Origin: Deltaproteobacteria bacterium
Lineage (GTDB): Bacteria; Bdellovibrionota_B; Oligoflexia; Oligoflexales; Bog-1112
Direction of reading: 5' to 3'
Assembly (NCBI GenBank): GCA_016186945.1
Contig: JACPKR010000003.1
Span: 11,542-75,541 of the forward strand
DNA length: 64,000 nucleotides
Shown: one piece after another, positions 15,699 through 36,183 of the stretch
Numbering within the stretch: the stretch's first letter is position 1
Layout of the letters: each line of letters opens with the position of its first letter
Made by a program: the position numbers and the translations under genes
The notes under the pieces: generated by a model
What the model saw: only the letters and a program-made list of their open reading frames with translations
The model's database searches: none
Told to the model about the DNA's origin: nothing

Positions 15699-15821
15699 GT
15701 GAGGCGTAAGCCGCATGTTGTGAAAAGGGAGAGGTGGGTTTGGGGGGGCAAGTGAAGCGTCGCCTCCCCCGGATTTCTGGGAGGAACCAGCTGCGCAGTT
15801 TCCTCCAAACCACCTCCTTGC
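15699..15821 (-). mobile_element. Family A MITE, diverged, one TIR truncated
   Basis: Contains the core GGAGGAACCAGCTGCGCAGTTTCCTCCAAACCACCTCCTTGC and a TIR-like GTGAGGCGTAAGCCGC. Confidence 0.85.
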
Positions 15822-32412: not shown

Positions 32413-32886
32413 ATGCTTCTCAGGATTCCCAAAGGCTTTAGCTTAGTCGAGCTGATGGTGGTCGTTGCCATCATTTCCGTGCTCGCTGCGATTGCCATTC
32501 CACGCTTTCAAACCTTCCAAGCTAAAGCTCGCCAGGCAGAGGCGAAAATGAATCTGTCTCATATCTTTACTCTCGAGGAATCTTATCAAGCAGAAAATGA
32601 TCAATACACCAACCTTGCGGAAGATGCTGCTTGCGGCGATTCCAATGAACTCGGCTTCTACATTTCAAACTGTGCAAAGGCCCGCTACCATTATTCAGTG
32701 ACCGATGCTTCCACTGTCGCCTTTTCGGGCCATGCGAAATCTGGCGAAGGCCCTGCTAACAAAGTTACTCCCGGCTGCCAAATGGACTACTGGACGATAG
32801 ACCAGGACAAAGTTCTAAGAGCTGTCTCCGACTCCGTCACCCGCTGTGGACAAGCCGGTGGCCGTGCTCCTGCTCCTGCCGAATAG
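32413..32886 (+). CDS. pilA: Type IV pilin (PilA-like)
   Basis: KG|FSLVELMVVVAIISVLAAIAIP prepilin motif; four Cys in the C-terminal half. Confidence 0.85.
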   Translation: MLLRIPKGFSLVELMVVVAIISVLAAIAIPRFQTFQAKARQAEAKMNLSHIFTLEESYQAENDQYTNLAEDAACGDSNELGFYISNCAKARYHYSVTDASTVAFSGHAKSGEGPANKVTPGCQMDYWTIDQDKVLRAVSDSVTRCGQAGGRAPAPAE

Positions 32887-32895
32887 ATAATTTCC

Positions 32896-32942
32896 TTGGA
32901 GGAACCAGCTGCGCAGTTTCCTCCAAACCACCTCCTTGCCGT
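32896..32942 (-). repeat. Family A core-only derivative
   Basis: TTGGAGGAACCAGCTGCGCAGTTTCCTCCAAACCACCTCCTTGCCGT, 9 nt after the pilA stop. Confidence 0.88.
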
Positions 32943-33037
32943 GGCGCCTCTCTGCCGCCGAGTTTAAGGTGGGTGTCTTGTAAATTCCCTGCTAAAGTTT
33001 TCCTGTGAAACAAACTTCATAAATTGGGAGTGTAGCT

Positions 33038-34078
33038 ATGGCTTTGATTCCTCTTCGCGTACTTCTTGATCATGCAGCGGAAAACAACTACGGCGTAGGT
33101 GCTTTTAACGTCAATAATATGGAGCAAATCCAGGCCATCATGGAGGCAGCACGGGAGACGGAAAGTCCGGTGATCGTTCAAGCTTCCCGAGGCGCACGGA
33201 CTTACTCGCAAGACAATTATTTACGGCATCTCATGCTGGCGGCTGTCGAACTCTATCCAGAAATTCCTGTCGTCATGCATCAGGATCACGGGAACAGTCC
33301 CGACACTTGCTTTTCAGCCATCAAGCAGGGTTTCACCTCGGTCATGATGGACGGGTCACTTCATGAGGACGCTAAAACACCTGCCGACTTTACATACAAC
33401 TGTAAGGTGACAAGGCAGGTCGTAGATGCCGCCCATAAACAAGGCGTTTCTGTAGAAGGCGAATTGGGTTGCCTCGGTTCCCTCGAAACAGGCAAGGGTG
33501 ACAAAGAAGACGGCCATGGTGCGGAGGGGACACTATCCCGCCATCAACTTCTCACCGACCCTGAGGAAGCAAGGGAATTCGTAACCCGCACTAAGGTTGA
33601 TGCCCTGGCAGTCGCCGTGGGAACCTCACACGGGGCGTACAAATTTTCCCGTAAACCAGATGGTGCCATACTTTCCATCGAGACGATCATGGACATCCAC
33701 AGGAAATTACCAGACACCCACCTTGTGATGCACGGTTCTTCATCTGTGCCCCAACACTTACAGGACTTGGTGAATGAGTATGGCGGGAAAATCAAGCAGA
33801 CCTACGGGGTCCCTGTAGAAGAAATACAGAAGGCCATTCGGCATGGCGTGCGAAAAATTAATGTGGATACAGACAATCGCCTAGCTATGACAGGCATGAT
33901 TCGCAAAATGCTATGGTCCAAACCTGAGGAGTTCGACCCACGCTATTACATGAAACCAGCCAGAGATGCGATGAAGGAAGTGGTAAAAGAAAGGATGTTG
34001 GCGTTTGGCCAGGCAGGTCACGCGCCGCAAATCCGACAGGTGACCTTATCCGAAATGGCCAAACGTTACCATTATTGA
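33038..34078 (+). CDS. fba: Fructose-bisphosphate aldolase class II
   Basis: [47 protein letters not shown] and KINVDTD. Confidence 0.96.
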
Positions 34079-34446
34079 GCTACTGGTTCCTCGGGACCAC
34101 TCATGGGTTCCGTAGGAGCTGCTGGTGCTGCGGCAGCGTCAGCAGGAGCTGCATCTACCAACGCGCTTACTTTCTGACATTGGTAGCCAGATTGGCTCAG
34201 TTTATCGACCAAACCCTGAGCTTTCTGCTCACAATAGCCAGCCTCGCCGTTAGCCCAATACGTCTTTTGGGGACCTGCGGCATCCCTCTCGTACATGACC
34301 TGGCATGGAACATCCGTCATCTGCGGATACTGAACTTCAACAGTACGTGTGTAGTCCGCTCCTTTACATTGATATTTGACCGCATCGACGGCGAACGCTT
34401 GTCCAAAACCGACGCTCACCATTCCTAGTAAAAGCAACCTTTTCAT
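34072..34446 (-). CDS. Small secreted four-Cys hypothetical protein
   Basis: Signal peptide ending AFA; C...R.VEV.Y...VPC.V.Y...GYCE..A...YQC; Ala/Pro-rich tail. Confidence 0.75.
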
Positions 34447-35290
34447 CCCAATTACTCCTAAAAAAATTTTTTTTATTATACATTGAATTTCTGTCGTACT
34501 CTATAGTGTTCAAGATAATCAATGTAATGCGTAAGCCACTTGGGGCAAATAGGGAGAGGGGGGTTTGGGGGGGCGAGGGAACCGTCGCTCCCCCAAGGGA
34601 TTTCTTGGAGGAACCAGCTGCGCAGTTTCCTCCAAACCACCTCCTTGCCCCAAGTGGCTTACCACGGAAAATTTCAGAGGCATTCTGCAACCATTCTACG
34701 GCATCGGAAAGTGGTAGGCCAATGACATTTGTGAAGGATCCGCGAATGCTCTTTATGAAGCATGTTCCCTTTCCTTGCAAGGCGTAAGCACCTGCCTTAT
34801 CCATAGGCTCACCCGATTTCACATAGGAGCTGATTTCCTCATCCCCAAGGATTCTAAACTGTACATCGGTTTCAAACAGCGCGCTAACGACTTTCCTCTT
34901 GAAAGGCTTTGCTTTAACGAAGTGAAAACACATAGCAGTCAGCACCTTATGCCACTTGCCGGAAAGTGCTTGCAACATTTGCACGGCTTCGTCCTGATCC
35001 CGCGGTTTTTCAAGAACCGAGGAACCGAGCAGCACAATAGTATCCGCGCTTATGATAATGGTATTTTGCTTCAATCTCTTGCAAAAAGCCTTGTCGTCCA
35101 ACAAGCATGCCCCCTTTAGGCGCGCATGCTGTTCAGCATAACGGCGTGGATCATTCAAAAGCCCGCGGTTGTTAGTTTCATCATAGCTGCTTGAGATGGT
35201 TTCAAAGACGATTCCTGCCTGGATTAGAAGTTCCTTGCGCCGCGGAGATGCGCTGGCGAGAAAAATTTGGGATGTGGCCGCCTGATTCAC
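34364..35290 (-). CDS. maf: Maf-family nucleoside triphosphate pyrophosphatase with a ~99-aa repeat-derived C-terminal extension
   Basis: LASASPRR, ISADTIV, EKP, LSGKWH, DKAGAYALQG and NVIGLPL. The Maf domain ends near 34663 and the frame continues through MITE A. Confidence 0.92.
   Translation of the reverse strand: MNQAATSQIFLASASPRRKELLIQAGIVFETISSSYDETNNRGLLNDPRRYAEQHARLKGACLLDDKAFCKRLKQNTIIISADTIVLLGSSVLEKPRDQDEAVQMLQALSGKWHKVLTAMCFHFVKAKPFKRKVVSALFETDVQFRILGDEEISSYVKSGEPMDKAGAYALQGKGTCFIKSIRGSFTNVIGLPLSDAVEWLQNASEIFRGKPLGARRWFGGNCAAGSSKKSLGGATVPSPPQTPLSLFAPSGLRITLIILNTIEYDRNSMYNKKNFFRSNWDEKVAFTRNGERRFWTSVRRRCGQISM
34501..34523 (+). mobile_element. Family B left-end fragment
   Basis: CTATAGTGTTCAAGATAATCAAT, directly abutting a family A element. 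Confidence 0.8.
34524..34662 (-). mobile_element. Family A MITE lacking the terminal 7 nt of one TIR
   Basis: Intact GTAATGCGTAAGCC at 34524; the other end stops at ...GTGGCTTAC; no TSD. Confidence 0.9.
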
Positions 35291-35949
35291 GCTGACCTCT
35301 TCAGTTGGTGTTCGATGCGGGCCTGGCTAAGCGCGCCTTTACGGATCCATGTGGCGACTCCTCCTGGCTTGATACGGATGATTGTGGAGGAGCGGCCTTC
35401 TTTCGCAGAGAAGAGGTCAAGTGGGGGTGTCCAAACGTCCTGGGCACCGCAGAATCGGGCTAAGTCATCTCCCCTAACGATAGGTTCTTCGCCTGCCTTG
35501 TTGACGCTCGTCGAAGGAAGGGGGAACGTGAGCGTCTTCAAAACTTCCGCAAGCCAAGCCTTCTCCTTCCCCAAAGAGGGACACCGCAGCGCCATCTCAC
35601 CCGTCGTGGACACAAGACATGGCGGAGTGCCAGCCTTCGCTTTCCACACTACGGTTAGCGACCCTGGCCATAATTCCGCGAGGACTTCGTTCCAAGGAGC
35701 GGGAAGGGCTTGCCAAAATGTTATCGCGTTCGCCAACGACGAGACCAGGCCAAGCATAGGCCGTCGCTCGGCCCACCCTTTGACGTTTCCCAGTTTCTCA
35801 ACAGCCTTTTCCTGAAACGGGTGGCAGGTCAAGCCTGGGATCGTATCAGTCGGGTGCAGGCAAATTTCACCGGCCTCCAAGTGCTGGATAAAAATGGATG
35901 AACGATCATTTATTGCGCTTGCCAAAAAAAAGATCCTCTCACAATGCAA
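35287..35949 (-). CDS. tsaC: Sua5/YrdC-family L-threonylcarbamoyladenylate synthase
   Basis: PTDTIPGL, WPGSLT, ALRCP and STSVNKAGE; the start codon is uncertain. Confidence 0.85.
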   Translation of the reverse strand: MHCERIFFLASAINDRSSIFIQHLEAGEICLHPTDTIPGLTCHPFQEKAVEKLGNVKGWAERRPMLGLVSSLANAITFWQALPAPWNEVLAELWPGSLTVVWKAKAGTPPCLVSTTGEMALRCPSLGKEKAWLAEVLKTLTFPLPSTSVNKAGEEPIVRGDDLARFCGAQDVWTPPLDLFSAKEGRSSTIIRIKPGGVATWIRKGALSQARIEHQLKRSA

Positions 35950-36101
35950 AAATTTCAGGGTTCAGGCCTTGCTAAACCTTCTCCAAGGAGCCTTGCAAGG
36001 CCCTGTATTTACGAAGGATTACCAGTTCAATGAAATGACAAAAAATTTAATAATGCTCGTGATTTATAATATAAGAGCAATCAAAAAACAATAATGTAGC
36101 A

Positions 36102-36159
36102 GTAACCCGTTCTTGGAGGAACCAGCTGCGCAGTTTCCTCCAAACCACCTCCTTGCCGT
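36102..36159 (-). repeat. Family A internally deleted derivative
   Basis: GTAACCCGT (matches the TIR variant of the 44384 copy) fused to the core ending CCTTGCCGT. Confidence 0.82.
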
Positions 36160-36183
36160 ACGTGCAACAAGCGAAGGGTCGTT

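Follow-up and report, generated by a model that had tools for sequence, protein, structure and literature searches.

The Correia elements (CREE) of Neisseria and other bacterial MITEs are high-copy elements of ~100-160 nt with terminal inverted repeats (TIRs), which are located at gene 3' ends or overlap them. CREE-type elements form strong RNA hairpins and alter transcript ends.

In Coxiella burnetii Dugway, enhC reads in frame into the MITE QMITE2 and gains 33 aa, while in C. burnetii RSA 493 an indel sets the stop just before the same QMITE2 (PMC5896051). Genes with a MITE-supplied stop codon, such as ubiB, are listed in the same publication (PMC5896051). According to the summary given there, the RPEs of Rickettsia (Ogata et al. 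2000, 2002) belong to the short mobile repeats; they are palindromic and stop-free and are translated within housekeeping proteins (PMC5896051).

Here we describe a maf gene in the window (the whole stretch of 64,000 nucleotides that was analyzed). In the deposited MAG, the reading frame of this gene passes without a stop into the MITE (family A) that adjoins it downstream, as that of enhC does in Dugway. In a contig from the same strain, the same MITE end is accompanied by a small indel that gives a stop codon, which corresponds to the other state of enhC. Host sequence does not resume in frame after the repeat, as it would in an RPE-like case. Both maf sequences can be found in public data and are identical apart from the indel, and the argument from the reading frames is sound.

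Results

The maf gene and its neighbourhood

An earlier note on this DNA had described a long maf ORF that runs into one repeat, then into a fragment of another, and finally overlaps the next gene by 83 nt. This is confirmed by the ORF list of the deposited assembly, in which maf is an ORF of 308 aa (34364..35290, minus strand; all features in this section are on this strand). Its residues 8-203 match the Maf profile (PF02545) over profile positions 1-186/187, with 185.9 bits against a gathering cut-off of 27 (E 7.6e-55). All invariant Maf columns of a 26-sequence alignment are present, within aa 11-193. The residues kept are S13, S15, R17, R18, E38, K59, D83, K95, E161, D164, K165 and Q172 (numbering of this protein), and every invariant column is located upstream of the junction described below.

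The maf core (34663..35290) consists of codons 1-209 and the first base of codon 210, and is the same as in a 211-aa allele through ...EIFR. At the junction (34662..34663), 11 nt (ATATGTGAAGC, given for the minus strand) are absent when compared to Logan contigs from the same strain, as seen in the alignment to one of them (L013). Then follows a MITE A copy of 139 nt (34524..34662), which was delimited by TIR searches and is identical to another genomic copy at 139/139 positions. A left-end stub of MITE B (23-25 nt, 34499..34523), of which only CTCTATAGTGTTCAAGATAATCAAT is left, directly abuts the A TIR. The next 52 nt are a spacer (34447..34498), the sequence of which contains an AGGAG motif as ribosome site for the next gene and also a TATAAT-like box for this gene. 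This spacer is the same in Logan contigs L014 and L015, and it is part of the Maf tail frame in the long allele. The extended maf frame finally overlaps the start of the next gene (34364..34446) and ends with a TAA at 34364-34366.

This next gene (34072..34446 in the ORF list) codes for a small protein of 124 aa with a signal-peptide-like N-terminus and without a Pfam match. The exact protein is present on Logan contigs, and the congener G002 has a similar small-protein ORF of 126 aa at the matching position (a correspondence by position, with no alignment made). A simple scan revealed neither a consensus promoter for the small gene nor a terminator-like site after the A element on the maf strand. 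Upstream, a tsaC/yrdC-like gene (35287..35949, PF01300) overlaps the start of maf, and the order of these two genes is the same in congeners (synteny in L002 and L003).

In G002, a ubiE-like methyltransferase gene (L002 803-1495) is located between the small secreted-protein gene and maf. The genome analyzed here (G000) codes for an orthologue (56% identity) on another contig (C59:8769-9467), with a MITE B copy directly after it. In G001, yet another gene is found downstream of maf, a third arrangement. Because the arrangements in the three genomes differ, gene order around maf is considered fluid in the genus. A big deletion of the ubiE-like gene beside maf had been considered. It is unsupported, as G000 still has this gene on contig C59, and is further weakened by the other gene that follows maf in G001 and by the intact allele, which already has a MITE at its stop codon.

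The stop codon of the sister allele

Among the results of a protein search was a Maf protein of 211 aa that is 100% identical over the shared part and ends with ...EIFRDM. The 90% protein cluster has two members, the 211-aa form, which is encoded on four Logan contigs and occurs in at least three or four sequencing runs, and the 308-aa form, which is encoded on the NCBI MAG contig (89,112 nt). Logan contig L013 (SRR12113424; the same contig is found in three samples) aligns to positions 36138..34635 of the window with 1504 identical bases, zero mismatches and one 11-nt gap. The junction in Logan is TTCCGTG-ATATGTGAAGC-GTAAGCCACTT (intact-allele junction CCGTGATATGTGAAGCGTAAGCC). In the MAG, it is TTCCGTG-GTAAGCCACTT (short-allele junction CCGTG/GTAAGCC, within CCGTGGTAAGCC).

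The earlier note had assumed an ancestral CGT GGT AAT GCG TAA from which exactly 7 nt are missing. The same-strain contigs read differently (CGT GAT ATG TGA AGC GTAAGCC, with Maf ending RDM-TGA), and it is 11 nt, not 7, that are missing when compared to L013. These correspond to codons Asp210-Met211, the TGA stop codon and AGC. Seen from the element, they comprise 4 nt of maf and the degenerate outer heptad of the TIR, GTGAAGC. The lost TGA is inside this heptad, where the consensus (GTAATGC) has a TAA. Slippage between two GTAA repeats, which had been invoked for the loss, does not explain it, since the ends of the deletion share only one base (G). With a single shared nucleotide, no simple mechanism is evident.

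Maf proteins of close relatives end 2-3 residues past the same point (IFEGIL, IFKAMG, IFDTMD and IFSSLG, each directly before the stop codon), as does the 211-aa form, which is thus the normal-length Maf. Among the best 120 homologues listed, almost all have 181-224 aa and one has 279 aa. With its 308 aa, the MAG protein is off the usual length of ~185-220 aa, and the homologue search and the alignment contained no Maf relative with such a tail. A protein of only about 210 aa is what the earlier note had named as contrary to its reading. For the Logan runs, with their 211-aa Maf, this is the case, while the MAG codes for 308 aa. The proposed repeat-derived extension was correct for the assembly, where it is in frame, but it is not fixed, the intact 211-aa allele being present on four Logan contigs. 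Judging from these contigs, the 11-nt loss is not a fixed feature of the organism.

Repeat family A

Both repeat families that the earlier note had recognized are real. Family A has about 283-297 ends in the genome (2.66 Mb, 76 contigs), and family B has about 120 copies. The A unit has 146 nt and a TIR of 25 nt (GTAATGCGTAAGCCACTTGGGGCAA), which matches the window 10 times (expected number 0.05). Terminal inverted repeats, small size, the lack of an ORF of its own and the many copies make family A a MITE. As RNA, the element forms a long hairpin (-82 kcal/mol, z -6.1).

There are 94 two-ended copies, 52 of which have consensus-like outer heptads at both ends. A TSD of 8-9 bp is found in 30 of these 52 full/full copies (27 exact, 3 with at least 7 of 8). 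The other 42 copies have a non-consensus outer heptad at one end or at both, and all of them lack a TSD. Non-consensus heptads are more often found on the GGAGG side. The inner parts of these 42 copies are near-identical to the family. If old insertions had simply decayed, such a sharp boundary at the heptad would not be expected. There may thus be another spreading or homogenising route for A, e.g. gene conversion or an alternative end.

In the copy at maf, the TIR on the B side is complete, while the one on the maf side begins at the inner GTAAGCC and is devoid of the consensus outer heptad GTAATGC. There is no TSD around this copy, either with the flanks from the MAG or with those from the intact allele (TAATCAAT versus ATATCACG, 4/8 matching).

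A full A copy has just two stop codons on its sense strand, both of them TAA and both within the first 11 nt of the TIR, one in frame 2 and one in frame 3. Frame 1 has no stop over its whole length (VMRKPLGARRWFGGNCAAGSSKKSLGGATVPSPPQTPLSLFAPSGLRI), and it is also open in the opposite orientation of the element. The maf gene runs through its A copy in the only fully open sense frame (KPLGARRWFGGNCAAGSSKKSLGGATVPSPPQTPLSLFAPSGLRI). Genome-wide, 63 ORFs with at least 120 open codons run into A ends. The TIR of family A had been proposed to supply stop codons, and this is borne out by 29 of the 63 ORFs, which end on the TIR TAAs (16 on the one at TIR position -6, 13 on the one at +1). For 13 more, the stop is located in the flank next to the TIR (positions -11 to -7), and only 7-8 read through by at least 158 nt. 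The intact maf allele belongs to the "-6" stop class. For dozens of genes, the A TIR serves as a two-frame stop cap.

As a possible parent of family A we considered IS66, which has GTAAGC ends and an 8-bp TSD. The 91%-complete MAG has no match to the IS66 transposase (PF03050), so IS66 is no more than a lead.

There are also copies of the central hairpin module of A (TTGGAGGAACCAGCTGCGCAGTTTCCTCCAAACCACCTCCTTGCC) that lack the G-rich arm, at 32896-32945 and 36113-36162 of the window and also at 15778, 24213 and 49877. Several of these copies have no full TIR or a partial TIR only. One begins 9 nt past the stop codon of a pilin-like gene at 32886.

Repeat family B and the A-on-B composite

Family B, a candidate IS630-type element, has a unit of ~165 nt that starts with CTATAGTRTTCAAGATAATCAATTTGGGGA and ends with AAATACTATAG. 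The about 120 genomic copies begin with ATAGTRTTCAAGATAATCAAT-TTGGGGA..., and the ends of the consensus are CTATAGTRTT...AATACTATAG. At the maf locus, just 23-25 nt of one end are present. An A-on-B composite without a TSD, as had been proposed from the MAG sequence, is found independently in Logan: the direct junction between the A TIR and the B stub, which has no TSD, is reproduced at 100% by L014. The whole small-gene side of the MAG (A TIR, B stub and small gene) is matched at 100% by L014 and L015.

The ATAGT end of B is very often located 20-60 nt from the start of a gene on the opposite strand, and an RBS-ATG arrangement is visible in many flanks. Family B may carry or adjoin promoters.

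The C-terminal tail and its counterparts in other genes

The tail has 99 residues. They are encoded by MITE A, then by the B stub and the spacer, and finally by 83 nt that belong to the next gene. The last 53 of these residues originate from the B stub, the promoter region and the out-of-frame gene start, and these 53 codons past A are open by chance. The tail is basic (17 K/R versus 5 D/E) and rich in Gly, Ser and Pro. In the AF2 model, pLDDT is high for aa 1-212, and is below 50 without secondary structure for aa 215-308. Accordingly, the Maf tail is predicted to be disordered. Because Maf loses only the non-conserved Asp210-Met211, the enzyme should still fold. We infer translation of the tail, which would be neutral or mildly harmful. 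Nothing suggests that it is under selection.

Four other genes of the genome have a comparable end. In an aspartokinase (G000 C3:16404), the ACT domain extends to residue 407, and A begins at residue 406. In an alanine racemase (G000 C9:2419), residue 382 is the last of the C-terminal domain and A begins with residue 383, being read in another frame. A class I methyltransferase (G000 C23:14400) has an A-encoded C-terminal tail, and a protein of 826 aa (G000 C38:3051) results from in-frame read-through of a MITE A copy. These read-through proteins gain ~50-165 C-terminal residues that are derived from the repeat or its flank. The peptide RKPLGARRWFGGNCAAGSSKKS... is found at the end of the aspartokinase and of the methyltransferase as well as in Maf. 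Peptides of the Maf tail such as WFGGNCAAGSSK are likewise common to the aspartokinase and methyltransferase tails. As they are shared, only junction peptides such as ...ASEIFRGKPLGAR are specific for Maf.

Assembly and independent contigs at the locus

At four contig ends of the MAG, the stretch of A has a length of exactly 141 nt, and at two it has 140 nt (e.g. C16, C66 and C70). These contig ends indicate that the genome was apparently assembled by a de Bruijn assembler at k=141. At this k, identical copies of the repeat evidently broke the assembly, and the copies that were traversed may be biased to shortened or divergent variants. In a de Bruijn contig, every junction k-mer must occur in the reads. 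The presence of the short junction in the MAG thus argues for real molecules. Between its unique flanks, the intact allele contains 141 or more bases that are not unique, and therefore is not bridgeable at k=141. The short allele is bridgeable by exactly one base on each side, which explains why the 89-kb contig follows this allele, irrespective of how frequent it is.

Another "short-end" junction of the MAG, TTCTGA/GTAAGCC on contig C42, is reproduced by Logan contigs. Here, a half A copy of 75 nt (C42:22112-22186, TGA/GTAAGCC) follows an MFS transporter gene both in the MAG and in L017/L018. In L016 (SRR12113383), 12 unrelated bases (AGGGTATCTCGC) are found in place of the half element, with flanks that are 99.9-100% identical. 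This polymorphism within one strain looks like a replacement rather than a clean insertion with a TSD. It shows that structural variants at MITE A loci exist in the same population.

Logan contig L020 (SRR12113431) is identical to the window from 36138 to 34664 and ends with ...TTTTCCGT, 1 nt before the variable point, as is expected at a branch in the assembly graph. It ends at CCGT, whereas CCGTG is expected for a branch between two alleles. A third junction variant, e.g. CCGT/AAGCC generated by deletion between two CGT triplets, is possible. There may thus be three alleles at the maf site, and the local picture may be more complex than two alleles.

The short allele was seen only in the MAG. 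The exact 308-aa product was not found in the contig index, nor were the expected cut products of the short allele (..RRWF, ..RRWFG) found in Logan, and an exact-pattern scan of metagenome and genome contigs did not reveal independent copies of the maf locus. Look-ups of the aspartokinase junction and of a 180-aa neighbour protein in the contig index were empty, too. For this reason, the negative results for the short allele carry little weight, as the method may be insensitive.

Discussion

Origin of the extended maf frame

A copy of the abundant MITE A immediately adjoins maf at its 3' end. In the allele that is common in this strain, the TGA of maf is located inside the degenerate outer 7 nt of the TIR, resulting in a Maf of 211 aa. 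We propose that in a second allele, represented by the deposited MAG, 11 nt have been lost by a deletion that ends exactly at GTAAGCC, where the inner TIR starts. As this loss removes the stop codon and moves maf into the stop-free frame 1 of A, 99 further codons would be translated. Ribosomes on the long allele would have to open the A hairpin. Further on, they would move over the ribosome site of the next gene and over its first 27 codons, which they would read in another frame. The tail would be an accidental and disordered by-product, with the catalytic Maf domain untouched. The MAG would show the short allele because the assembler apparently used k=141, with only the shortened copy being bridgeable. 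We consider this explanation as a whole, including the short allele as a real micro-deletion in part of the population, to be probable on the available sequences, with considerable doubt left.

The main competing possibility is that the 11-nt gap is an artefact of assembly, polishing or library preparation and that the organism has only the 211-aa Maf. The 11 nt are present in every independent public contig that spans and passes the site, the short allele is not found outside the MAG, and the site edges a perfectly repeated, hairpin-forming element of 139 nt, which is error-prone for assemblers and polymerases. A k-mer assembler, however, yields only junctions that are contained in reads, and such an assembler at k=141 is indicated by the contig ends. 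The rest of the MAG agrees with Logan base for base on both sides of the gap, and the two also agree at the other "short-end" junction (C42). In addition, real variants of MITE loci exist in the same run set. We regard an artefact as unlikely, yet as an explanation to be taken seriously. The model of the earlier note, in which slippage between the GTAA repeats of a TIR reading CGT GGT AAT GCG TAA cut out 7 nt together with the stop codon, rests on a correct observation. When compared to the consensus GTAATGC-GTAAGCC, the maf end lacks exactly the outer 7 nt, and restoring the consensus after CGTG would give a stop at GCG TAA. The allele predicted in this way is CGTGGTAATGCGTAAGCC. L013 has CGTG-ATATGTGAAGC-GTAAGCC instead, which differs by 11 nt, has the heptad GTGAAGC and its TGA in the other register, and has no GTAA repeat flanking the deleted piece. 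Moreover, the short end is so common (42 of the 94 two-ended copies, none with a TSD) that no special slip is called for. The model is rejected, and we consider it hardly credible.

It is tempting to speculate that the tail is functional, a MITE-encoded basic module rich in Gly, Ser and Pro that was selected, e.g. for localisation or regulation, and was added to several enzymes. The recurrence of RKPLGARRWFGGNCAAGSSKKS... at the ends of aspartokinase and methyltransferase, another A frame on alanine racemase, and the openness of frame 1 in both orientations would fit. We nevertheless judge this to be highly improbable. The maf allele seen in several runs is the one with an intact stop codon, and read-through is the minority outcome (7-8 ORFs, as compared to 29 with their stop at a TIR TAA). 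Disorder is predicted for the tail, its last 53 residues derive from the B stub, the promoter region and the out-of-frame gene start, and no Maf relative in the homologue search and the alignment has such a tail.

A micro-deletion that generates an accidental tail is thus the reading that we retain. A more far-reaching version, to which we give little credence, is that the ends of MITE A are hot spots for recurrent small indels that toggle between a TIR stop and read-through. If this were true, phase-variation-like C-terminal variants of Maf, aspartokinase, alanine racemase and methyltransferase would be present in the natural population.

Implications

For genome annotation, the 308-aa Maf of the public MAG should not be taken as the normal protein of the organism. 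An extremely dense MITE with one open frame (~290 ends in 2.66 Mb) reshapes gene ends, and for the addition of a long junk tail, a tiny indel at an A TIR suffices. The locus also illustrates a bias in metagenome assembly. When a repeat is longer than k and passable only via a shortened variant, the MAG may show an atypical allele.

Comparison with known systems

Family A differs from CREE in belonging to another sequence family, in that a search for a cognate transposase (IS66) was negative here, and in that nearly half of its copies have a non-consensus end and no TSD. As far as the RPEs are summarized in the source cited above, they are internal in-frame insertions with host protein on both sides. 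In maf, the repeat replaces the C-terminus and the frame never returns. The similarity to enhC and QMITE2 is much closer. In both cases, a MITE is located at the 3' end of a gene, with an in-frame C-terminal extension in one state and a stop codon set by an indel in the other. Unlike for enhC, the two states of maf are otherwise identical and are from one strain or population rather than from two named strains, and one of the states is known only from a MAG. The maf tail is also longer (99 aa versus 33 aa for enhC), and it runs on through the stub of a second MITE into the next gene. The enhC/QMITE2 system is the closest and a direct precedent, and the maf case is nothing new in kind.
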